A stretch of 42,512 nt of DNA, taken from assembly GCA_045650425.1 (NCBI GenBank), contig JAZRRD010000019.1, positions 1 through 42,512 of the forward strand. The letters run 5' to 3'. A program made the position numbers and the translations under genes. The notes under the pieces are model-generated. The model had not been told where the DNA came from. It saw nothing but the letters and a program-made list of their open reading frames with translations, and searched no databases. Position 1 is the stretch's first letter. Each line of letters starts with the position of its first letter. Source of the stretch: Bacilli bacterium (lineage in GTDB: Bacteria; Bacillota_I; Bacilli_A; RF39; UBA660). Shown in pieces: positions 27 to 39,118 of this stretch.

Positions 27-839
27 ATGATAAAATATTTAATTTATATAATTCTGGGATTTATACAAGGATTTACAGAACCTCTGCCAATATCTAGTAG
101 TGGGCATTTAATGTTATTTAATTACGTTTTTAATGTCGATTTTTTAAATGATGGAAACTTTTTAATAATATCAAATTTTGCATCATTTTTAGCAATATTC
201 TTTATTTTCAGAAAAGACATTATTGATTTAATTACAAGTTTCTTTACTTATATATTTAAAAAAGAAACACGAAAAAAATTAGCTTCTAAATTTAGATATT
301 GTTGGTTAATTGTTATCGGAACTATTCCTGTTGGTATAAGCGGTATTCTTTTAAAAGATTATGTAGATAAAGAAGTTGATCCAAGACTTTTAGGAGTAGC
401 TTTCTTAATTACATCATTATCTTTATTTATTGTTAGAAATATTAAAGGAAAGAAAAATGATGAAGACATAACTATTAAAGATGCTTTATTAATTGGTTTA
501 TTACAAGCCATTACAATTTGTCCAGGAATTAGCCGTAGCGGTACAGTATTAGTCGGATGTTTACTTTGTGGTTTAAGTAGACCTGCTGCTTTAAAATATA
601 CATTCATGTTATATTTTCCAGTTAGTATTGCATCAATGGCTTTAGAAGTATTTGATTTAATTCAAACGCCAAATATAATTGAACTTTTACCAATGTATGG
701 TGCTGGATTCTTAATGGCAGGTTTAGTAACATTATTCTCATATAACTGGTTAAGTAAATTAGTTAAAAACGGTAAACTTTGGAAATTCTCTATTTATACT
801 TTAATACTTGCAATATTTATCTTTATCTATTTTAGATAA
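27..839 (+). CDS. uppP: Undecaprenyl-diphosphate phosphatase (BacA/UppP)
   Basis: Motifs QGFTEPLPISSSGH and PGISRSG; multi-TM. Start moved to ATG 27 (AGGTGA RBS just upstream). Confidence 0.95.
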   Translation: MIKYLIYIILGFIQGFTEPLPISSSGHLMLFNYVFNVDFLNDGNFLIISNFASFLAIFFIFRKDIIDLITSFFTYIFKKETRKKLASKFRYCWLIVIGTIPVGISGILLKDYVDKEVDPRLLGVAFLITSLSLFIVRNIKGKKNDEDITIKDALLIGLLQAITICPGISRSGTVLVGCLLCGLSRPAALKYTFMLYFPVSIASMALEVFDLIQTPNIIELLPMYGAGFLMAGLVTLFSYNWLSKLVKNGKLWKFSIYTLILAIFIFIYFR

Positions 840-856
840 AGATTTTTTTATGAATT

Positions 857-886
857 AAAAAAATGATTTATTTTCATAAACCATTT
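857..886 (-). terminator. Intrinsic terminator of the LRR gene
   Basis: - strand AAATGGTTTA-tgaaaa-TAAATCATTT followed by a T-run, right at the stop codon. Confidence 0.6.
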
Positions 887-2990
887 ATTCTGTATAATTT
901 GGATCATATATTACTTCAGCAAATCCTGTAGTTGGTGTACCTACATCAAATGATCCTATATCGCCTACAAAGTTCCATTCGCTATGAAAACTAATATTTG
1001 CTAATGCATCCTCTTTAGTTCTTTTAATTACTATTGTTGTAACGTCATAGTTGTCCCCAAAAATAGAGAAACTAAGATTTGTTATAGACTCCGGAAGTAC
1101 TATTACTCCTTCTAATTCATTACTACCAAATGCATATGTCCCAATATTTTTTAATTGGCTTGGTAAATTTAATTCAGTTATATTATTACTAGCAAATGCA
1201 TCTGATTCAATAGTTTCAAGAGATTTTGGTAAAGTTAATGAACTAATATTATTATTCCAAAAAGCGTCTGCTCCTATTGTTTTTAATTGGCTTGGATTTT
1301 CTGCAGTATCTTCAAAAACAACTTCTTCCAATTTATAAATATCATATTTAAACGCATTTTGTGGTATTTCTGTTACATTAGTTGATATTATAACTTTTTT
1401 TACAGGATTATCACCAAAATGTTTACCATAATTTAGTTCAGGTTTATCCATTTGTACAACATTACCTATTTTTACCTCTGTTATATTATTACCATCAAAA
1501 GCATTAGGAGCAAGCTGTGTTAACGAACCTGGCAATTCTATTTTTGTAAGATTATTATCAGCAAATGCAAATCCACTAATCGAAACTAATTGACTCGGAT
1601 TTTCATGCGTATCTTCAAACGCTACTTCTTCTATATCGCACTCACTAAATGTAGAAAGTGGTATTTCTGTAATATTAGATTTAATTATAAGTTTCTTTAT
1701 TGATTTATTACCATCCCAATACTTTCTATCCACCAATTTATTATTCGCAATAATTACTTCATTAAAGTCATTACCATTAAAAGCATTTTCTGCAACTTCA
1801 TTTAATGAATCACAAAGATTTAAAGTTTTAATTTGAGTTGATTCAAATGCATTTGAACCGATTGTAATTAGCATACCGTTTTCTGGCCATATTAACGTTT
1901 CTAGTAAGCTATCATAAAAGGCGTAATCTCCTATATTTTCAAGATGCACTGCATCGCTTAAGTCTAATGATGTTACTTGTGACACAGGTTCTTCAAAATC
2001 TCCATCTTCAATATTAAATATTCCTACTTCTGGACCACTTATTTCATATCCAGACGCTTTATATTCTTGCCAATCTATTGCATTAAATTCTTCTTCGGTT
2101 GTTATAATTTTAAGACCCATTGCTTCTATGTCTTCTAATGTACATGTTGTTGGATTTTCACACATATCTTGTTTAACAAAAGCTATGAAATCATCTACAG
2201 TATTTTCATCTGTATAATAATATACATATTTTTCTTCTTCAGTTGTTTCATTATATAATACATAAAGTTGCATATTACTTAATGCAAAGGAAGCGCTATT
2301 AATTGTCTTTACTTTTACTCCATTTATTTCTGCTGGAACTACTACTTCAGTTCCACATTCATAATTATAGCCAGTAATTGTTCCACTATCATCTATAGCA
2401 AAACATTCGTTTAGTGCTGGAACTTCTATTCCTTGACCACCTGTGATAAATACTTGTCCTTGGAATATTTTACTTTGTTCAGAAACTGGAGCACTTTCAC
2501 TAAGCCATACTCTGATTGTATGTTCATTAGACCCATTGGCTACAACTCTTTCTACACTTACTTGTTTACTTACTCTTGATGTATATGTATTCTCTGCATC
2601 GGCGTAGTCTATATCTGATAACTCACTATATGTAAATGCGCTTTTTTCATCTAATTTTAAACGGATACTTGAGTCTTGTAAATAGTTTGATTCTTCCACT
2701 CTATTTAGACCAACGATATAATTTATTTCTTCATCACAATTATTTGTTACTGTAAATGTATATCCTGTTAGACTATTTGCTTCATCATCACTTATTGGCC
2801 AAGCACTATCTAAGTCGATTGCTGCACTTTTATCTTCTAGATTTAAATCTAGACATGCCGCTACGATATCATTTGGTGTCGTTTGTGTTTTTGTTATTTG
2901 CCAATATGCATATGTACTTCCTGCAATAATTGCTATTACTGCTACTATAGCTATTGACAATATCAAGATTTTATTCCTCTTTTCTTTCAC
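885..2990 (-). CDS. Surface protein: SipW-type signal, TasA/CalY-like N-domain, BspA-type (LRR_5) repeats
   Basis: Hydrophobic N-terminus ending GSTYAYW; beta-rich domain (YTFTVTNN...IRVWL...FQGQV); repeats such as LPKSLETIESDAFASN and LPSQLKNIGTYAFGSN. GTG start with AGAGGT RBS. Confidence 0.8.
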   Translation of the reverse strand: MKEKRNKILILSIAIVAVIAIIAGSTYAYWQITKTQTTPNDIVAACLDLNLEDKSAAIDLDSAWPISDDEANSLTGYTFTVTNNCDEEINYIVGLNRVEESNYLQDSSIRLKLDEKSAFTYSELSDIDYADAENTYTSRVSKQVSVERVVANGSNEHTIRVWLSESAPVSEQSKIFQGQVFITGGQGIEVPALNECFAIDDSGTITGYNYECGTEVVVPAEINGVKVKTINSASFALSNMQLYVLYNETTEEEKYVYYYTDENTVDDFIAFVKQDMCENPTTCTLEDIEAMGLKIITTEEEFNAIDWQEYKASGYEISGPEVGIFNIEDGDFEEPVSQVTSLDLSDAVHLENIGDYAFYDSLLETLIWPENGMLITIGSNAFESTQIKTLNLCDSLNEVAENAFNGNDFNEVIIANNKLVDRKYWDGNKSIKKLIIKSNITEIPLSTFSECDIEEVAFEDTHENPSQLVSISGFAFADNNLTKIELPGSLTQLAPNAFDGNNITEVKIGNVVQMDKPELNYGKHFGDNPVKKVIISTNVTEIPQNAFKYDIYKLEEVVFEDTAENPSQLKTIGADAFWNNNISSLTLPKSLETIESDAFASNNITELNLPSQLKNIGTYAFGSNELEGVIVLPESITNLSFSIFGDNYDVTTIVIKRTKEDALANISFHSEWNFVGDIGSFDVGTPTTGFAEVIYDPNYTE

Positions 2991-3022
2991 TATATATTAC
3001 CTCTTTCCTATCTTTCATATAT

Positions 3023-3050
3023 AGCATACCCCCCCCCGACCTTTTGTCAA
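3023..3050 (-). promoter_or_regulatory. SigmaA promoter with a G9 homopolymer in the spacer
   Basis: TTGACA-aaaggtcGGGGGGGGG-TATGCT; 16-nt spacer; G9 at 3029-3037. Confidence 0.7.
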
Positions 3051-3092
3051 AAAAAATCGACCAGAGGTCGACTTATTTTTGTAAACTTTACA
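3051..3092. repeat. ~42-bp intergenic element, copy 1 (GTCGAC hairpin/terminator plus TGTAAACTTTACA palindrome)
   Basis: aaaaaatcgaccagaggtcgacttatttttgtaaactttaca; closely similar to 16885-16925. On the - strand the hairpin is followed by a T-run. Confidence 0.7.
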
Positions 3093-5192
3093 CTAATCTG
3101 TTTTTAAATCTACTACTAATTCTAATTCTTTTGTTACTTTGGAACCTACACCAATATTAAATGAACTAACATAACCATATCCTTCTAAAGTACATTTAAT
3201 ACCTAATAAACGAGATAACGTCATCACTTCATTAGCACTCCATCCCTTAATATCTGGCATAAAGTATTCTTTACTATTTGTGAGTATAAATAATTTGTTA
3301 CCCGTTACCACAGTTTGTCCTTGTAATGGATATTGTTTAATTACCTTATCTCCATCGCCTAGAACTATTAACTCTAATTTTCTTTCGTCAGCATAATTTT
3401 TTACGCTATCAATATTTTGACTTATAAAATTGTCTATATTGATAATCTTTGATATATCTAAATCACTTTCTTCTGTAGTAATATTTGCATATTTTGCAAT
3501 TTCTTCGACTGATTTAGTTAAAACTTTTCCCATATCACCAGCAGTACCTACTAGTTGTTTAACAGAAAAATACACTATATATTTAGGATCATCTTTAGGA
3601 AACATCCCAGCAAAAGATTTAATTGTATCATATTTGCCAGTCATATATCCTCCACTTGATGAAGCTATTTGAGCAGTACCAGTTTTACCAACTAAAACAA
3701 CATTATTAGCTTTATAAGCACTAGATAACCCATCATAAACAACCCCATGCATTAAATTCCTCATTTTTGTTGCAGTGTCTTTAGAAATAACCTTTCCTAA
3801 TTCAGTTCTTTCATTTTTTAAAACTATATTACCTTCAGAATCTACTATTTTATCAACAATATAAGGTTTTAACATTATACCATCGTTAGCAATAAAAGTT
3901 AATGCTTGTAAATTTTGAATTGGAGTTGTTGTAATACCTTGACCAAACGAAGCATTTGCAAGTTCACTTTTATATTTAAAATTAATTTGACCACCTAATT
4001 CTCCAGGTAATTCTATTCCTGTCTTTTTACCAAAACCAAATTTCTTATAATAATCTTTTAATTTACCTACGCCTAATTCTAATCCTAAATTTGTTGATGC
4101 AACATTGGAAGAATAAATAAAACCAGTATCATAAGTAATTTCTCCCCAACCAGTTTTATTAAAATCACTAATTTTTACATCTGCTACCTGAATAGAACCA
4201 GACTTATAAGTTTTACTTCCATCATAAATTCCTTCTTCCATTGCAGCCATAAAAGAATACATTTTCATTGTACTTCCAGGTTCATACTGATATGAAACTA
4301 ATGGATTTAAATAAGATTCTAAAGTATTTAAGTTATTTAAATTAAAAGTTGGTGATGAAGCACTAGCTACTATAGCCCCAGTTTTAGCATCCATAATACT
4401 TAAAGTGGCCCAAGAAAGTTCTTTTGATTTAACTAAATCGGTAATTGCATTTTCTGCAATTATTTGTATGTTATTATCGATAGTTAAATAAATATCTGCC
4501 CCAGATACTGCATCTTCAGTTACAGATGGAGTATTTGGAATTTGATATCCATATGCATCTCTTTGATAAATTTTTTTACCATCTGTTCCTTCCAAATAAT
4601 CATTATAATATTGTTCAATTCCCATTTCTCCACTAATTTTACCAGTATCATTCGGTTTTGCATAACCAATGATATAAGAAGCAAATTGACCCATTTTATA
4701 ATATCTTTGACTAGATGCGATAAAATCAATTCCTGGCAAATCTAACTCTTGTATAGCTTTTTTTTCAATTTCTGTTAAATTTTTAGCATTTTTACCAAAT
4801 TCTACTTGATATGCTTCTTTATTCAGTCTCGATAAAATTTCTTCCACACTTATATTTATTAAAGGAGATAATTTTTCTGCCGTCATTTGTTTATCCACAA
4901 CGTGTTGAGGATTACTCTCATCCGTAGTACGCGATTCTTCCAAATAAGCAATTAAAGTATAAGAATTAACTTGTTGAGCAAGTAAATTACCTTTAATATC
5001 ATAAATACTGCCCCTATTTGCATATAAAATTTTTTCTACAGTATTTCTACCATCAGCAAAAGAAGTCAAGTTAATTCCATCCACCTTTGGACTTACTACT
5101 ATATAACAAAGTTTAGCTATTATTGCACAAAATAAAAGAATAACGCACACTAAAACAATTTTATATAGTTTTACCGTTATTCTTTTTTGCAT
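3093..5192 (-). CDS. pbpB: Class B penicillin-binding protein (PBP2B/2X/FtsI-type) with PASTA domains
   Basis: N-terminal TM, RGSIYD, SxxK (EPGSTMK), SxN (YSSNV), KTG (KTGTAQ); follows ftsL. Confidence 0.9.
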   Translation of the reverse strand: MQKRITVKLYKIVLVCVILLFCAIIAKLCYIVVSPKVDGINLTSFADGRNTVEKILYANRGSIYDIKGNLLAQQVNSYTLIAYLEESRTTDESNPQHVVDKQMTAEKLSPLINISVEEILSRLNKEAYQVEFGKNAKNLTEIEKKAIQELDLPGIDFIASSQRYYKMGQFASYIIGYAKPNDTGKISGEMGIEQYYNDYLEGTDGKKIYQRDAYGYQIPNTPSVTEDAVSGADIYLTIDNNIQIIAENAITDLVKSKELSWATLSIMDAKTGAIVASASSPTFNLNNLNTLESYLNPLVSYQYEPGSTMKMYSFMAAMEEGIYDGSKTYKSGSIQVADVKISDFNKTGWGEITYDTGFIYSSNVASTNLGLELGVGKLKDYYKKFGFGKKTGIELPGELGGQINFKYKSELANASFGQGITTTPIQNLQALTFIANDGIMLKPYIVDKIVDSEGNIVLKNERTELGKVISKDTATKMRNLMHGVVYDGLSSAYKANNVVLVGKTGTAQIASSSGGYMTGKYDTIKSFAGMFPKDDPKYIVYFSVKQLVGTAGDMGKVLTKSVEEIAKYANITTEESDLDISKIINIDNFISQNIDSVKNYADERKLELIVLGDGDKVIKQYPLQGQTVVTGNKLFILTNSKEYFMPDIKGWSANEVMTLSRLLGIKCTLEGYGYVSSFNIGVGSKVTKELELVVDLKTD

Positions 5193-9480: not shown

Positions 9481-9696
9481 CTATCTATAATAAGGATTAA
9501 AACCATAATTATAATAATATCCTCCACCATAAGGCGCATATGGAGGATAAATTGGTCTTGGGGCTACATTATATATTGGTCTCGGACGAGTAAGTCCTAT
9601 TGCAGCCCCTCCGGTAACAGCCCCTACTAAAAACGGAAATAAAAATTGTCTATCTTCATACTTATTGTATACATACGGTTCATAATTTCTATACAT
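9481..9696 (-). CDS. Small Tyr/Pro-rich spore-coat-like protein (YmaG-like)
   Basis: FPFLVGAVTGGAAIG core plus Y/P-rich tail; GAAAGGA RBS favours ATG 9696; mother-cell-type promoter upstream. Confidence 0.6.
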   Translation of the reverse strand: MYRNYEPYVYNKYEDRQFLFPFLVGAVTGGAAIGLTRPRPIYNVAPRPIYPPYAPYGGGYYYNYGFNPYYR

Positions 9697-9718
9697 ATAT
9701 GTCATTCCTTTCTGTTAT

Positions 9719-16291: not shown

Positions 16292-16606
16292 ATGAAAAAG
16301 AATAGAAATACTTTTTTCCAAGAAGCTCAAATGAGTTCTTATAATTACTATCCAAACCCAAATATGAATTTGATGAGTGCAAACATGCCTACTCAAGCTA
16401 GCCAATCTAGCCAAACATTTTATGCAGGTCCTGCTCCTATGATGCAAAATATGCCTAATCAAAACACACAATATAGCGACATTGAATCTAGACTTGCTAA
16501 ACTAGAAAGACAAGTAAGCCGTCTAGAAGCTAGAGTTAATAAATTAGAAGGCTCCACTTATATAAACGATGATTATGATTCATCGACCAATATGTATATG
16601 GTTTAA
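16292..16606 (+). CDS. Asn/Met/Pro/Gln-rich protein with C-terminal coiled coil, probably spore-associated
   Basis: AAGGAGG RBS; low-complexity N-half; IESRLAKLERQVSRLEARVNKLE heptads; sigmaK-like promoter. Confidence 0.6.
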   Translation: MKKNRNTFFQEAQMSSYNYYPNPNMNLMSANMPTQASQSSQTFYAGPAPMMQNMPNQNTQYSDIESRLAKLERQVSRLEARVNKLEGSTYINDDYDSSTNMYMV

Positions 16607-24132: not shown

Positions 24133-24885
24133 TTACTTACACTCAAAACCAACTGTTTCAATTTCATCAACAAACACATTAACATCATCAACATAAGGTA
24201 ACAAATCCATACCAATATATTCAGATGAGTATTTTAAATTATTTTCATCAAAGCGATAAGTAATTGCCCAGAATTTTTTTCCATAATCAGCCTCGACTAT
24301 TTTATCATAATTTGTTTTTGTCTCTAAGCCTTCTAAAATAGTTTTATATGTTGATTCATATTCCTTTTTTGCTTTTTTCTCTGAAACAAATTTAGTCACA
24401 TATGTAAAATGTTTCATTTTATTTTCTTTATATTTTATTTTAACACTAATTTTATAAGACGCATTGTTTGTATCATTATTGACTTTACAAGTAATTGTAT
24501 TTGAATTATTACTTATAACAAAAATTAAAATTAATGCCAAAATAGCTAAACCAATATATAGATAAATTAATTTATTAATTTTTCTAACTTTTTTAACAAA
24601 TTTTTTTAAAGCTTTTTTCTCTTCCGAAAGTTCAATTATTGGTTCTTTTTTTATTTCATCTTGTTTTACAACCTTTTTTGTTACAGATTCTTTTTTTACA
24701 GTTTTTTTAACTACTTTTGTCTTAGGTTTATTTTCAATATTATTTTCAGCATTCTCTTTCTTTTTAGATACTGTAGTCTTTTTTACTGTTGTTGCCTTTT
24801 TTTTTCTAACTGGCATCACTTCATTACAATATTCACAATTTTTAACGCCCGGTTTATTTTGTTCTTGGCATTTTGGACACTTCAT
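24133..24885 (-). CDS. Zinc-ribbon, Lys-rich linker, single-TM protein with extracellular domain
   Basis: CPKC...CEYC; TM near residues 107-124; promoter TTGCAA-17-TATACT at 24946-24918. Confidence 0.75.
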   Translation of the reverse strand: MKCPKCQEQNKPGVKNCEYCNEVMPVRKKKATTVKKTTVSKKKENAENNIENKPKTKVVKKTVKKESVTKKVVKQDEIKKEPIIELSEEKKALKKFVKKVRKINKLIYLYIGLAILALILIFVISNNSNTITCKVNNDTNNASYKISVKIKYKENKMKHFTYVTKFVSEKKAKKEYESTYKTILEGLETKTNYDKIVEADYGKKFWAITYRFDENNLKYSSEYIGMDLLPYVDDVNVFVDEIETVGFECK

Positions 24886-25311: not shown

Positions 25312-25401
25312 AAATATTCACCTTCTTAATAATATTCACATGCGAAAATTATTATATCACTAGTCTAACTTAAATGTAAATTGTTTAAAATATATGCCTA
25401 C

Positions 25402-25428
25402 AACAAAAATTACCTAAGTACATACTTT
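25402..25428 (+). promoter_or_regulatory. SigmaK/E-like promoter of cotJ
   Basis: AAC-16nt-CATACTTT. Confidence 0.6.
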
Positions 25429-25446
25429 ATTGTAGGAGGTTTAATA

Positions 25447-25872
25447 ATGTTATTTGAAAACAATGATTTTGGAATGATTTCTTTTATGGAATTCCCAGGA
25501 AACACATTTAATGAAACCATTTCATCTATTGACGAAGGTTTTACTAAAGGTAATATGTTTCCTAATGAGTATAAACCTTATAAAAATTATAAAGTAAAAC
25601 CCGTTAAAGCTACTACAAAAAAAGATGAACAATTATATAAAATTATGGCACTAAGTTTTGCGATTACTGATTTAAATTTATATTTGGATTTACATCCTAA
25701 TAATACAGAGATGGTAAAAAAATTCAAATCATGGGTAAAACAAAAAGAAGCCTTAGAAGAAGAATACATCAAAGAATATGGTCCATTAAAAGTAGAACAA
25801 GTCAATGGAAAAACATTTAATTGGGTATCAGATTTTCCTTGGGAAAAAACAGGAGGTTCAATGTATGTTTAG
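25447..25872 (+). CDS. cotJB: Spore coat protein, CotJA-CotJB fusion
   Basis: CotJA-like DEGFTKGNMFPNEYKPY, then CotJB FAITDLNLYLDLHP...YGPL...WVSDFPWE; GGAGGT RBS before ATG 25447. Confidence 0.85.
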   Translation: MLFENNDFGMISFMEFPGNTFNETISSIDEGFTKGNMFPNEYKPYKNYKVKPVKATTKKDEQLYKIMALSFAITDLNLYLDLHPNNTEMVKKFKSWVKQKEALEEEYIKEYGPLKVEQVNGKTFNWVSDFPWEKTGGSMYV

Positions 25873-26425
25873 TTATGTAAAAACGACACAATTTCCAATA
25901 AACATTAAAAAGAAAGATTTAAAAATGGCTCGTTATCTAATTACACAATTCGGGGGTCAAAATGGTGAATTATCTGCATCCACAAGATATTTTTCTCAAA
26001 AATTTAGCATGCCTGATGACAAAGGTGCCGCTCTTTTAAATGATATCGCTACTGAAGAAATGGGTCATGCTGAAATGATTTGTACCATGATTCATCAACT
26101 AATTAAAGATGCTACTCCTGAAGAATTAGAAAAAGCTGGACTTGGAACATTCTATACTGAACACAATAAAGGATTATATCCAATGGATTCTAATGGTGTT
26201 CCATTCAACGCTATTGGATTTGCTTCAACAGGAAACCCTATCGTCGACTTATCGGAAGATATGGCTGCAGAACAAAAAGCAAGAGCAACTTATGAAAATT
26301 TACTTCAATTAGCAACTGATGAAGATGTAATTGCTCCGCTTCTATTTTTAAGACAACGAGAAGTAGTTCATTTTAATAGATTTAAAGAACTCTATGAATA
26401 TTATTTAGATAAAGGATACTATTAA
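25865..26425 (+). CDS. cotJC: Mn-catalase family spore coat protein CotJC
   Basis: QFGGQNGEL, DIATEEMGHAEM, EDMAAEQKARATYE, REVVHFNRF; ATG 25865 with GGAGG RBS. Confidence 0.93.
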   Translation: MFSYVKTTQFPINIKKKDLKMARYLITQFGGQNGELSASTRYFSQKFSMPDDKGAALLNDIATEEMGHAEMICTMIHQLIKDATPEELEKAGLGTFYTEHNKGLYPMDSNGVPFNAIGFASTGNPIVDLSEDMAAEQKARATYENLLQLATDEDVIAPLLFLRQREVVHFNRFKELYEYYLDKGYY

Positions 26426-32665: not shown

Positions 32666-33136
32666 TTAATCGATATAACTGATAGTAGTCGCTACATTTT
32701 TATCTACTGTAATCTGCTTAACAGACCATATAATTGTTAATATAACTAAAATAAAAATTACTAAATATATAAGAATAAAATATTTTTGTGATTTTTTAGA
32801 TTCTTTTGTATAAGGAGAAACCACTTTTGTAATTTCTTTTTCTTCTTTCACTTGTTCTTTAACTGCTTTTTCAATTTCCTTTACCGGGATTTTAGAAGTA
32901 TATTCAAACAAGTATTCATTAAAATTATTAATTATTTTATTTTCATCTAACCCCAAATATTTTGCATAATCACTTAAATATTCTTTTAATTCAAAAATAT
33001 CTTTGAAAGCTCCTATTTTACCAGATTCAATATTTTCTAAAATTATATCTTTTATTTCTAAATCTTTACTGGCTTCTAAAATAGAAATACCAGAATCCTC
33101 TCTTGTAGATTTCAGTAAATCACCAATTTCATCCAA
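32666..33136 (-). CDS. rodZ: RodZ/YmfM-like HTH-TM protein, short
   Basis: IGDLLKSTRE...IESG...YAKYLGLD plus C-terminal TM; upstream of pgsA; TTG start with AAGGAG RBS. Confidence 0.75.
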   Translation of the reverse strand: MDEIGDLLKSTREDSGISILEASKDLEIKDIILENIESGKIGAFKDIFELKEYLSDYAKYLGLDENKIINNFNEYLFEYTSKIPVKEIEKAVKEQVKEEKEITKVVSPYTKESKKSQKYFILIYLVIFILVILTIIWSVKQITVDKNVATTISYID

Positions 33137-33163
33137 GACTTTTCACTCCTTTAAAATCAAAAA

Positions 33164-33513
33164 AATAATATCTCATAAGCCATGTTCCGTCCTTCATATG
33201 AAGGGACAAATATTTATCTACCATTGCTGGTCCCCTACTTTGTTCAAATTCCATTGTAGAAGCTCCCCTACCAAAATTTGGGTTTCTCGCTCGTGGGGTT
33301 TACCACGTTCCACTATCAAAGTTTCCCTTGATACTCGTCTCTTTGGCACTTTTATATCTAATTTAACCAGTTAAGGTTATTTCAAAGCCGTTAGTTATAA
33401 ACTACCTTAGGTTATTTTTTCCCTAAGCACGAACACTACAATCATCGCAGATTGTGCGAGCATGGACTTTCCTCTACATAATAAATTTATGCAGCATTTG
33501 TCTCAATATTATT
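33164..33513 (-). ncRNA. rnpB: RNase P RNA, type B
   Basis: GAGGAAAGTCCATGCTCGC, GAAAGTGCCA-like AAAAGTGCCA, GGTAAACCCC and GAACATGGCTTAT; P1 aataatat/atattatt; follows gpsB as in Bacilli. Ends are approximate. Confidence 0.93.
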
Positions 33514-35890: not shown

Positions 35891-35972
35891 TTAAATAACA
35901 TTATATGTCAACAACAAAACAAAGGTAGAAAAAAAAATACAAATATAGTATAATTATTAAAGGTGATTGTAA

Positions 35973-36521
35973 GTGAATTATCCGAATAAAATAAAAAAAA
36001 ATAATCATAAATTAATTACTTATGACAACCGAGGAATGGATTTAGAAAATTTAATAAATAAAACAAATGAATATTACTTAGATAAAAATAGAGCTTTAAT
36101 ATACAAAAAGCCTACCCCAATAGGAATTATCGAAGGTAATTATAAAAAAATAACTAATGCTTACTTTAAGGCACCATCAACATTAGATTACAATGGATTA
36201 TACAAAGGAAATTATATAGAATTTGAAGCAAAAGAAACAAAAAATAAAACTTCATTTCCTTTACAAAATATCCACGATCATCAAATAATTCATATAAGAA
36301 AAGTAATTGAACACAAGGGAATTTGTTTTATTATAATTATGATGAACGGATTATATTATTTATTAAACGGGAATGATTTTATAGAATATATTGATACTCA
36401 CAATCGTAAAAGCATAGAATATCAATTTATTGTGGAAAAAGCATATTTATTAAAAGAAGATTATTATGGTTTAAATTATTTAGATATTGTAGATGAATTT
36501 ATAAAGGAGAGTTTAAAATGA
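35973..36521 (+). CDS. recU: Holliday junction resolvase RecU
   Basis: NRGMDLE, KKPTP, STLDYNGLYKG.YIEFEAKET, HDHQ. Confidence 0.96.
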   Translation: MNYPNKIKKNNHKLITYDNRGMDLENLINKTNEYYLDKNRALIYKKPTPIGIIEGNYKKITNAYFKAPSTLDYNGLYKGNYIEFEAKETKNKTSFPLQNIHDHQIIHIRKVIEHKGICFIIIMMNGLYYLLNGNDFIEYIDTHNRKSIEYQFIVEKAYLLKEDYYGLNYLDIVDEFIKESLK

Positions 36522-39118
36522 ATTTAAAGAAAATCAATTTTAGAAATAAAAATAAAAGGAAAAATGAAAAAAACGATCGTAAAAAACTATTAAATGCAAT
36601 TTTAGTATTTTTATCTATATTAGGTATAGGATTGGCATCACTAATACTAGTTTTTGCCCTATACATAATAATATCATCACCAGATTTTGATCAAGAACTT
36701 TTATATAGCCAAGAATCTACTGTAATGTATGATGTTAACAACAAAGAAATTGCTCGAATTGGAAGCGAAAATAGAGTTTTAATAACTTACGAAGAACTAC
36801 CACAAGTATTAATAGACGCATTAATAGCTACAGAAGATTCAAGATTCTTTCAACATAATGGATTAGACGGCGCAAGATTCTTAGTCGCTTCAATTAAACA
36901 AGCATTAGGAGATAACAGTGCTGGTGGAGCCTCTACACTATCAATGCAAGTTATAAAAAACACTTATACAGGAAAACAAGCTGATGGAATAAAAGGTATT
37001 ATACGTAAATTTACTGATATCTATATGGCAGTATTTAAATTAGAAAGCAAATATACTAAAGAAGAAATCATCGAATTTTATTTTAATTCTCAATGGCTTG
37101 GTTATGATGGTAATTTAAATTATAGTGGAATATATGGCGTTGAACAAGCCAGTCAATATTATTTTGGTAAATCAGTTAGTGACTTAACTTTAGCAGAAGC
37201 TTCAATGTTGGTTGGAATGTTCCAAAACCCGTATTATTACAATCCTTATAAAAACCCAGAAATAACAACAAAAAGAAGAAGTACTGTTTTGAAATTAATG
37301 GTTAAACATGGTTACATAACTGAAGAAGAAAGACTAAATGCAGAAAAAATATCTATTCAATCTTTATTAAAAGAAAAAAATTCTATAACAACTAGTCCTT
37401 ATCAAGCTTTTATAGATTATGTTATTGATGAGGTTGAAGAAAATACAGGTATTAATCCAATTAAAACTCCAATGGCAATCTATACAACAATTGATCCAAA
37501 TGTTCAAAAACATATAACTGATATAGAAAATGGAAATACTTATAAATGGCCAAATGAAGTCTTACAAATGGGATTAGCAATAACATCTGTTAAAGATGGT
37601 TCTATCGTAGGTATGAGTGGCGGAAGAGATTATGCTGCCAAAGGTCTTAATAGATCTACTGACATAAATAACCAACCTGGTTCAACTGCTAAAATTTTAT
37701 TTGACTACGCCCCATATATAGAATATTTAAACGGTTCAACGTATTCAATGTTCTTAGATGAATCATATACATATTCAAATGGAACTAAAATAAGCAATGC
37801 CGACAACAAATACAGAGGACTTCAAACAATGCGTCAAGCATTAAGTTCATCTAGAAATATCCCTGCATTACAAGCATTTCAAGCAGTAAGTAATTTAGAC
37901 CAAAATCTAATTTCAGACTTTGTTCACAGCTTAGGAATTAATTATGGTAAAGATTTATATGAATCTGCTTCTATCGGAGGATTTAATGGGACTAATCCCC
38001 TAGAAATGAGTGCAGCATATGGAGCCTTTGCTAGAGGTGGTTATTATATTAAGCCTTATGGATATACTAAAGCGATTGATTTAGCAAATGAGAAAGTATA
38101 CGAAAATAAATATACTAAAGATAAAGTTATGAGTGAAGAAACAGCTTATTTAATTACTAGCATCTTAGAAACCGCACAAGATAATGGTGTTGGTGGTAAA
38201 ATAAATGTTTCAGGTACAGATGTAGCTGCTAAAGGTGGTACTACAAACCTAGATTCTAAATCAGAAAAAGATAAAGGGTTACCAGGCGGAGTTACACCAG
38301 ACCACTGGAATATAACTTATTCCCCTGATTATACAATTGCTCTTTGGGTTGGATATGATACAGTTACAAAAGATTACTATTTAACTTCATCCAAAGGTGG
38401 AACAATAAGAAAAAATATTATGGGAACCCTTGGAACTAAAGTATATAAGAAAAATTCTAAATTTACTAAACCAAAAGGAGTCGTTTCTGTTGAAGTAGAA
38501 AAAGAAACATTCCCTGCTCAACTGCCAAGTGAATATACTCCAGCAAATATGCGAATAACAGAATTATTTAAAAAAGGAACCGAACCATCTGAAGTATCTA
38601 CAAGATATAGTCAACTAGAAGCTCCTAAAAATGGTAGTTATACATTTGATGGAACTAATATAAAACTTACATGGGATTCGATTAATATTCCAGATGCTAT
38701 AAATTCAACAAAATTACAAGAACATTTTAATGAGTATTATTACAATCACGCTTCAAATTATTATCAAAAAAGAATTAATTATAATAACTCTAATATTGGT
38801 ACTTTAGGTTATCAAATATATTTAAAAGATGGTAATGGAAATTTACAAAGTTTAGGTTTCACAAATAATAATAGTTTTAATTATCAAGTGACACCAGGAA
38901 ATACCACATATACTTTTATTATTAAATCTGCTTATAGTATTTTTAAATCAAACATGAGCAATGGTCTTAGTATTACAGTTTCTGTAAAAATGGATTCTAC
39001 AGTCGAAGATATTGTAAAAACGGAACAAGAGCCTAATACAAACAATTCTGAAAACACTTTTAATGAAAACTTAAATACTGATAATACATTAAATAACGAT
39101 TCTATTGAATCAAATTAA
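36518..39118 (+). CDS. ponA: Class A PBP (PBP1A) with C-terminal FN3-like domain
   Basis: EDSRFFQH.G, GASTLSMQ, RKF; SxxK (PGSTAK), SRN, KGGT; follows recU. Confidence 0.93.
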   Translation: MNLKKINFRNKNKRKNEKNDRKKLLNAILVFLSILGIGLASLILVFALYIIISSPDFDQELLYSQESTVMYDVNNKEIARIGSENRVLITYEELPQVLIDALIATEDSRFFQHNGLDGARFLVASIKQALGDNSAGGASTLSMQVIKNTYTGKQADGIKGIIRKFTDIYMAVFKLESKYTKEEIIEFYFNSQWLGYDGNLNYSGIYGVEQASQYYFGKSVSDLTLAEASMLVGMFQNPYYYNPYKNPEITTKRRSTVLKLMVKHGYITEEERLNAEKISIQSLLKEKNSITTSPYQAFIDYVIDEVEENTGINPIKTPMAIYTTIDPNVQKHITDIENGNTYKWPNEVLQMGLAITSVKDGSIVGMSGGRDYAAKGLNRSTDINNQPGSTAKILFDYAPYIEYLNGSTYSMFLDESYTYSNGTKISNADNKYRGLQTMRQALSSSRNIPALQAFQAVSNLDQNLISDFVHSLGINYGKDLYESASIGGFNGTNPLEMSAAYGAFARGGYYIKPYGYTKAIDLANEKVYENKYTKDKVMSEETAYLITSILETAQDNGVGGKINVSGTDVAAKGGTTNLDSKSEKDKGLPGGVTPDHWNITYSPDYTIALWVGYDTVTKDYYLTSSKGGTIRKNIMGTLGTKVYKKNSKFTKPKGVVSVEVEKETFPAQLPSEYTPANMRITELFKKGTEPSEVSTRYSQLEAPKNGSYTFDGTNIKLTWDSINIPDAINSTKLQEHFNEYYYNHASNYYQKRINYNNSNIGTLGYQIYLKDGNGNLQSLGFTNNNSFNYQVTPGNTTYTFIIKSAYSIFKSNMSNGLSITVSVKMDSTVEDIVKTEQEPNTNNSENTFNENLNTDNTLNNDSIESN

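Follow-up and report, generated by a model that had tools for sequence, protein, structure and literature searches.

Does a run of nine G residues, lying between the -35 and -10 boxes of a promoter, tune the expression of the surface-type protein gene that follows it? The question is raised by a locus in a 42,512-nt stretch of chromosomal DNA from a low-GC Bacillota-type organism (24-31% G+C), all of which was analysed and which we call the window. A sequence-only reading had proposed that slipped-strand changes in this tract make the promoter a contingency locus for a leucine-rich repeat (LRR) surface protein. We find that the G9 promoter is a credible but unproven candidate for promoter-spacer phase variation of the porA/vlp type. 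Whether tract length functionally controls the LRR gene through a terminator-insulated sigma-A promoter is, in our estimate, evenly balanced.

To describe the locus, we combined direct reading of the minus strand with promoter and terminator scans. The features run as follows, from the upstream gene to the LRR gene.

3093..5192, minus strand: pbp2B, the upstream gene (transpeptidase and PASTA domains by Pfam), last of mraZ-mraW-ftsL-pbp2B
3074..3054, minus strand: intrinsic terminator hairpin of pbp2B, AAGTCGACC-TCT-GGTCGATTT, with 9 pairs (4 GC), a loop of 3 and a T-rich tail (terminator scan)
3056..3049, minus strand: T8 run after the hairpin (A8 on the plus strand at 3049-3056)
3050..3045, minus strand: -35 box TTGACA, perfect consensus (direct reading and promoter scan)
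3044..3029, minus strand: promoter spacer of 16 nt, AAAGGTC plus G9 (reading and promoter scan)
3044..3038, minus strand: spacer segment AAAGGTC (reading)
3037..3029, minus strand: G9 homopolymer, the candidate slippage tract, abutting the -10 box (C9 on the plus strand)
3028..3023, minus strand: -10 box TATGCT, 4/6 matches with the key A2 and T6 present (reading and promoter scan)
3026..3018, minus strand: alternative extended -10, TGcTATATA, 5 nt downstream of TATGCT (reading)
directly after TATGCT, minus strand: ATATATGAAAGAT (reading)
3005..3000, minus strand: Shine-Dalgarno sequence AAGAGG, core of AGGAAAGAGG, 9 nt before the GTG start
2990, minus strand: GTG start of the 701-aa LRR gene (reading)
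885..2990, minus strand: gene with a GTG start for a 701-aa BspA-type LRR protein, P0001, Pfam LRR_5 (PF13306)

The promoter scan reports this promoter on the minus strand at 3050-3023 as TTGACA-16-TATGCT, scoring 10/12. The coordinates, hexamers, 16-nt spacer and count of nine G given in the sequence-only reading all prove right on direct reading, as does its placement of the tract directly upstream of an LRR gene, which is the 701-aa LRR_5 gene at 885..2990 on the minus strand. The gap between pbp2B and this gene is 102 nt, and the last two T's of the T8 run are the TT of TTGACA. Because the terminator lies directly upstream, the LRR gene is expected to depend on its own promoter. The arrangement thus makes a credible sigma-A-type promoter with a spacer filled by G9, and TTGACA-16-TATGCT is probably the promoter that the LRR gene actually uses. 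A spurious open reading frame on the plus strand (2954..3160) also spans the G tract.

The G9 tract is a composition outlier in the window. No other G or C run exceeds 5 nt in the 42.5 kb, so that the tract is indeed the longest such run in this very AT-rich DNA, as first reported. Runs of at least 5 comprise one C9, six C5 and one G5; with the tract left out, G/C runs of lengths 1 to 5 number 8052, 1429, 161, 38 and 7, and there are none of lengths 6-8. Extrapolating the decay of this run-length census gives 0.002-0.016 expected G/C runs of 9 or more per window, and the corresponding values are 0.004 under an independent-base model and 0.007 under a first-order model.

How much meaning the promoter match carries depends on its stringency. 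Loose promoter-like matches number 46 in the window versus 43.8 +/- 6.7 in shuffles, which is chance level in AT-rich DNA, and a generic promoter match therefore carries no meaning. A stringent match is rare: of 20,000 random 102-mers drawn with intergenic composition, only 85 contained a perfect TTGACA followed, after a spacer of 16-18 nt, by a -10 that keeps A2 and T6 and scores at least 4/6. TTGACA itself is a real signal in the window. Most genes lie on the minus strand, and five of the seven TTGACA copies there are intergenic, with intergenic DNA making up 4132 of the 42,512 nt (~10%); the four copies on the plus strand all lie within genes. A properly spaced -10 follows three of the five intergenic minus-strand copies, namely at the divIVA promoter (TTGACA-17-TATAAT, 12/12), the recA promoter (TTGACA-17-TACAAT) and the LRR promoter. 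Among the eight upstream-region candidates that score at least 10/12, the spacer is 17 nt in four, 18 in two, 19 in one and 16 in one, the last being the LRR promoter. Its -10 lies 32 nt from the start codon, and this distance is 18-39 nt in six of the seven other candidates; in the candidate with the 19-nt spacer, the -10 lies 142 nt from its start. The earlier arithmetic, by which G10 would give the optimal 17 nt and G8 only 15, is right, and 17 is the modal spacing (4/8) of the window's best promoters. Since the organism's own best promoters use 17 nt, G10 as the optimum is supported.

We then asked what this promoter would express. Pfam LRR_5 matches P0001 over three stretches (1.7e-45, 154.5 bits versus a cut-off of 27.7), and the GTG start is confirmed by the family alignment (A1), in which 25 relatives begin MKEKKKK/MEKNKRNK. 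An AlphaFold (AF2) model with pLDDT 83, read together with Pfam and the family alignment, gives the following organization.

residues 2-34: N-terminal helix covering a hydrophobic stretch (AlphaFold model)
residues ~45-185: beta-sandwich (AlphaFold model), in a conserved module at ~26-195
residues ~197-330: alpha/beta linker domain (AlphaFold model)
after the alpha/beta domain: LRR solenoid with LRR_5 repeats (AlphaFold model and Pfam)
C-terminus: conserved YDPNYTE (family alignment)

With a family model above its cut-off and a predicted LRR solenoid fold, P0001 is a BspA-type LRR protein. The best match in a fold search is pneumococcal PcpA (4cp6, 3.9e-7), followed by BspA-type LRR surface proteins of gut bacteria and Treponema (4gt6, 4fs7, 4fd0 and the TpLRR structure 6mlx). 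LRR_5, the hydrophobic helix and these fold matches predict a surface-exposed or host-interaction product. P0001 carries no LPXTG motif or other recognisable wall anchor, and for this reason the proposed role of surface adhesin can be drawn only from family and topology.

The N-terminal module (2391-2990 on the minus strand, residues 1-200) consists of the hydrophobic helix, a STYAYWQ motif and the beta-sandwich, which ends in FITGGQG. The sequence-only reading implied a SipW signal for this gene. An N-terminal hydrophobic signal or anchor is present, but NCBIfam yields no SipW-signal model for it and no TasA/camelysin family at E <= 0.01. In Pfam, no model exceeds its cut-off over the module; Peptidase_M73 (camelysin) is sub-threshold at residues 16-62 (E 0.026, 14.8 bits versus a cut-off of 22.5). 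Against the PDB, a sequence search with the module gives nothing significant and a profile search no relevant match, and a fold search gives 0 matches at E <= 0.001. An Atlas feature search provides a lead only, with 5 of 30 matches being clusters that bear PF12389 (score 0.91). By these searches, the module does not qualify as a SipW-cognate signal or a TasA/camelysin member.

The module is nonetheless widespread. A search with it alone yields 2299 cluster representatives with E <= 0.001, of which 891 reach 1e-10 and 60 reach 1e-30; nearly all of the 150 matches listed have it at the N-terminus or close to it. In 40 representatives hand-picked from these 150, Pfam (E <= 1e-5) finds LRR_5 in 29, a sub-threshold LRR_8 in one and nothing in 10. 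In the family alignment, conservation is high at residues 1-195 and in the C-terminal YDPNYTE, whereas the central region and the LRR part differ among members in both sequence and number of repeats. For each of the relatives P0003, P0004, P0016 and P0022 the longest contig is 29,691 nt, and these four probably share one contig. The best relative of P0001 is 60% identical, whereas relatives of the adjacent PBP2B are 98, 89, 87, 86, 86, 85, 84, 84 and 80% identical. Close strains are therefore sampled, and the LRR gene would be absent from them or far diverged; breaks of contigs at repeated genes could also hide it there. Taken together, the sequences support a fast-diverging, multi-copy LRR gene family. 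The locus downstream of pbp2B may itself differ among close strains, given 98-80% for PBP2B and 60% for the LRR protein.

These elements suggest how a switch at this promoter might work. The terminator would end the mraZ-mraW-ftsL-pbp2B transcript, and transcription would start again from the sigma-A-type promoter TTGACA-16-TATGCT, giving a leader of ~25 nt with AAGAGG before the GTG start. Since a single G run makes up nine of the 16 spacer bases, slipped-strand gain or loss in replication would shift the distance between -35 and -10 by one base at a time. A slippable G/C homopolymer is commonly taken to be one of ~7-8 or longer, and G9 is long enough to slip by that threshold. One-base slippage would move the spacer among 15, 16, 17, 18 and 19 nt, and promoter strength would follow. 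Strength would peak at G10, with the 17-nt spacing of the organism's best promoters; G9 as assembled (16 nt) and G11 (18 nt) would be usable and weaker, which makes G9 sub-maximal, and G8 or fewer and G12 or more would space the boxes poorly. The outcome would be heritable, reversible and graded expression of one variable member of the LRR family, a volume control as opposed to a clean on/off switch. Promoters generally remain active with any spacer from 16 to 18 nt, and the effect of tract length may therefore be modest. The sequence elements, the rarity of the tract, the gene family and the modal 17-nt spacing are direct observations; an appreciable rate of change in tract length, and expression of the LRR gene that follows this length, are inferred.

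Most documented cases of promoter-spacer phase variation come from Neisseria, Haemophilus and mycoplasmas. In Neisseria, expression of porA, fetA and opc is controlled by homopolymers between -10 and -35, and tract length alters sigma-factor binding to produce graded expression (PMC2791445). Like the predicted promoter of the G9 locus, these promoters hold a G or C homopolymer, unstable in their case, between -10 and -35 of a surface-protein gene. Unlike them, the G9 locus serves a BspA-type LRR gene and its tract abuts the -10 box; moreover, Neisseria are Gram-negative pathogens in which variation was shown experimentally, while the G9 locus belongs to an uncultured low-GC Bacilli-type organism known from sequence alone. 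In mycoplasmas, indels in the -35/-10 spacer switch vlp (M. hyorhinis), maa2 (M. arthritidis) and vmm (M. mycoides) ON and OFF (PMC2268961). These genes resemble the LRR family in encoding multi-copy variable surface proteins, and mycoplasmas are relatives of Bacilli. In vlp the tract consists of poly-A and in vmm of a TA repeat, and the proteins encoded are lipoproteins. The G9 locus differs from vlp and vmm in its poly-G tract, in a genome that keeps peptidoglycan genes, in an LRR protein whose N-terminus is not of the lipoprotein type and in relatives whose spacers carry A6 or A8 (see below).

Two further mycoplasma cases bear on the locus from opposite sides. Candidatus Mycoplasma girerdii has at least 28 BspA-type LRR copies, eight of which show read-level length variation of simple sequence repeats in a metagenome (PMC5476646). 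The resemblance to the LRR gene's family lies in the large number of members and in their kind, BspA-type LRR surface proteins; however, the example in Fig. 3 of that paper is a dinucleotide repeat that causes a frameshift within the open reading frame, whereas the G9 locus has a mononucleotide tract in the promoter and an open reading frame without a long repeat. In M. agalactiae, by contrast, a poly-T next to the -10 of vpma has no role, and variation arises by Xer1 inversion (PMC2268961). Both the vpma poly-T and G9 are homopolymers that directly precede the -10 of a variable surface-protein promoter; unlike vpma, the G9 locus has no flanking inverted repeats that we could find. A non-exhaustive literature search found no BspA-type gene of Bacilli described with a poly-G switch in its promoter spacer, found phase variation of BspA or leucine-rich repeat proteins in mycoplasmas only, and, for RF39/Bacilli LRR surface proteins, found no such switch among the titles listed.

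To compare the promoter with those of relatives, we scanned genome contigs with the family alignment (A1). The 34 pattern matches resolve to one locus, L001, a 2697-nt MAG contig labelled uncultured Tenericutes. It is distant, with 34% identity over residues 25-121. Two family genes lie there in tandem (114..1925 and 2012..>2695), and they are almost the same as each other in their upstream regions and signal-peptide codons. The window and both copies share a common plan when aligned (A3): hairpin and T-run, ~19-20 nt, TATGYT, Shine-Dalgarno sequence and start. The -10 is TATGCT in the window, TATGTT in copy 1 and TATGCT in copy 2, followed by ATGAAAG, ATAAAGG and ATGAAGG, respectively, and then by the Shine-Dalgarno sequence and start. 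TATGYT thus occurs in both L001 promoters, at distances to terminator and start similar to those in the window, which supports TATGYT as the -10 element and a conserved 5' cassette. The two L001 cassettes (1-204 and 1900-2102), each with terminator, promoter and signal-peptide codons, differ, among other things, in the length of the spacer poly-A (A6 versus A8) and of the T-run that follows the hairpin (T6 versus T5).

The spacers do not share the G tract. Both L001 promoters carry A6 or A8 in place of a G/C tract and have a weak -35 (TTTTAT); the G tract would therefore be lineage-specific and not a conserved family feature. In the window alone, A-runs of at least 6 nt number 52 and such T-runs 149, and because runs of A6-A8 are commonplace in such DNA, we do not count them as evidence of switching. 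Neither a further G/C tract nor a further family gene is present in the window. The suggestion that the tract is one of a genome-wide family of such promoters is accordingly unsupported by these data, with A6/A8 in both relatives' promoters. What the data support of the contingency-locus reading is a credible sigma-A-type promoter, a terminator and a BspA-type multi-copy family, with a precedent in PMC5476646; they give no evidence for the genome-wide G-tract design.

The absence of the tract from both L001 promoters also suits the alternative that survives best, a static promoter. TTGACA-16-TATGCT would work as it stands, expression would be constitutive from a slightly sub-optimal spacer, and the G run would be chance or recent filler stabilised by mismatch repair, with no meaningful switching. 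In a genome of ~2 Mb, an assumed size, extrapolation of the window census gives roughly 0.1-0.8 G/C runs of 9 or more, and one such run per whole genome is not very improbable. A tract in this position can also be inert, as the vpma poly-T shows (PMC2268961). However, G/C runs elsewhere in the 42.5 kb stop at 5, which makes a neutral G9 unexpected, and the G9 lies wholly within the 16-nt spacer of a surface-protein gene, where length matters. Runs of nine G or C are, moreover, hypermutable in studied systems (PMC2791445). We give a static promoter a minor though appreciable chance, below that of control by tract length.

It is rather doubtful that a different promoter drives the gene. Here the TG-extended -10 TGcTATATA (3026..3018) would act without contact to a -35, leaving the tract upstream of the core promoter with little or no effect on spacing and, at most, a role through DNA shape or a binding protein. 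This element lies 21 nt from TTGACA; if it were the working -10, TTGACA spacing would be irrelevant. Its TG is correctly placed at -15/-14 relative to TATATA, the counterpart in L001 copy 2 is TGcTATCAT, whose hexamer at 5/6 is better than TATGCT, and the weak -35 (TTTTAT) of the L001 promoters fits as well. On the other side, TATATA (3023..3018) lacks the conserved final T, and the counterpart in L001 copy 1 is only TGtTACCCT (3/6). A perfect TTGACA 16 nt from TATGCT is itself rare by chance (85/20,000), and the recA and divIVA promoters in the window use TTGACA and no TG.

An assembly artefact, in which the tract or its length is miscalled or the pbp2B flank is chimerically joined to a multi-copy LRR gene, is very improbable: homopolymers are error-prone and the highly similar 5' modules of paralogues (93% identity between P0001 and P0003 over residues 26-200) can mislead assemblers, but 3 kb separate the tract from the nearer end of the 42.5-kb contig, the flanks of the tract form a coherent terminator-promoter-RBS unit, and A/T runs of 8-9 nt within open reading frames leave those frames unbroken in a gene set that looks intact. 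Since such long A/T runs leave the frames unbroken, homopolymer calling seems sound; the exact G9 length is an assembly call from one assembly.

The ALTERNATIVES examined were an extended -10, an inversion switch, an Rfam element in the gap and a homopolymer artefact. For an invertible promoter, the region 2400-3700 holds only short AT-rich inverted matches (<=21 nt, 71-100% complementary), none of which brackets the promoter closely; with no flanking inverted repeats, an inversion switch is unlikely. Rfam at gathering thresholds finds only RNase P class B and a tRNA, both elsewhere in the window, and ARAGORN finds only a tRNA-Met in the window, so neither a known RNA element nor a tRNA was detected in the gap. 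A G-quadruplex is ruled out by inspection, there being a single G run. An RNA structure that involves the tract was also considered: the minimum free energy (MFE) fold of the read-through transcript pairs the 5' arm of the terminator with GGUCGG at the start of the tract, but this fold makes up 2% of the ensemble and is absent from the centroid. GGTCG occurs twice on the minus strand, 21 nt apart, at 3037-3041, running into the G tract, and at 3058-3062, in the 3' arm of the terminator. The 5' arm could pair with either copy in a read-through transcript, and the MFE fold uses the copy that runs into the tract.

The remaining genes of the window give the genomic setting. They include mraZ-mraW-ftsL-pbp2B, tyrS, infB-rbfA-truB, nusA, recA, ftsK, clp, recU-pbp1 and cotJB/cotJC. 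The cotJB gene and a gene for a cotJC-type Mn-catalase lie at 25381-26425 on the plus strand, and the peptidoglycan genes comprise pbp2B (3093-5192), a class A PBP transglycosylase and bacA/uppP (36518-39118 and 18-839). Together with the Tenericutes label of L001, cotJB/cotJC and the peptidoglycan genes suggest a walled, possibly spore-forming lineage near Mollicutes.

If the tract varies, the locus would be a clean case of promoter-spacer phase variation on a BspA-type LRR protein in uncultured, peptidoglycan-bearing Bacilli, and it would draw attention to a large, unannotated family of surface proteins as a variable coat, facing host or phage, of organisms known from metagenomes only. If the tract is invariant, this is an ordinary promoter with an odd spacer. 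A far broader proposal, which we consider unlikely, is a vlp-like system in walled uncultured Bacilli near Mollicutes. It would comprise a surface-protein family of at least 2299 representatives with the G9 promoter as one switch, and its 5' cassettes (terminator, promoter, signal and beta-sandwich) would carry lineage-specific spacer homopolymers (G9, A6/A8), with copies switching independently to create a combinatorial coat. Were it true, mycoplasma-style surface variation would be placed before wall loss, and a new export or display module would be defined, possibly a distant relative of TasA/camelysin.

Several other features of the window deserve record. Three of its four 9-nt A/T runs are A9 runs at 35929-35937, 35993-36001 and 24797-24805. 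One overlaps the -35 and spacer of the best recU promoter candidate (TAGAAA-17-TATAAT), one lies ~20 nt into the recU reading frame, and one, on the coding strand, lies ~80 nt into the gene 24133..24885, where it encodes RKKKA. These positions could be prone to changes in spacing or to frameshifts. An RNase P RNA of class B (33171-33509, minus strand, 277.8 bits) lies directly downstream of divIVA, and the plus-strand open reading frame that overlies it (33003..33374, 123 aa) is probably spurious. Finally, two small open reading frames may be coat-like or spurious: one at 9481-9705 on the minus strand (74 aa) is rich in Tyr, Pro and Gly and ends in GGGYYYNYGFN, and one at 16292-16606 on the plus strand (104 aa) is rich in Gln, Asn, Pro and Met.
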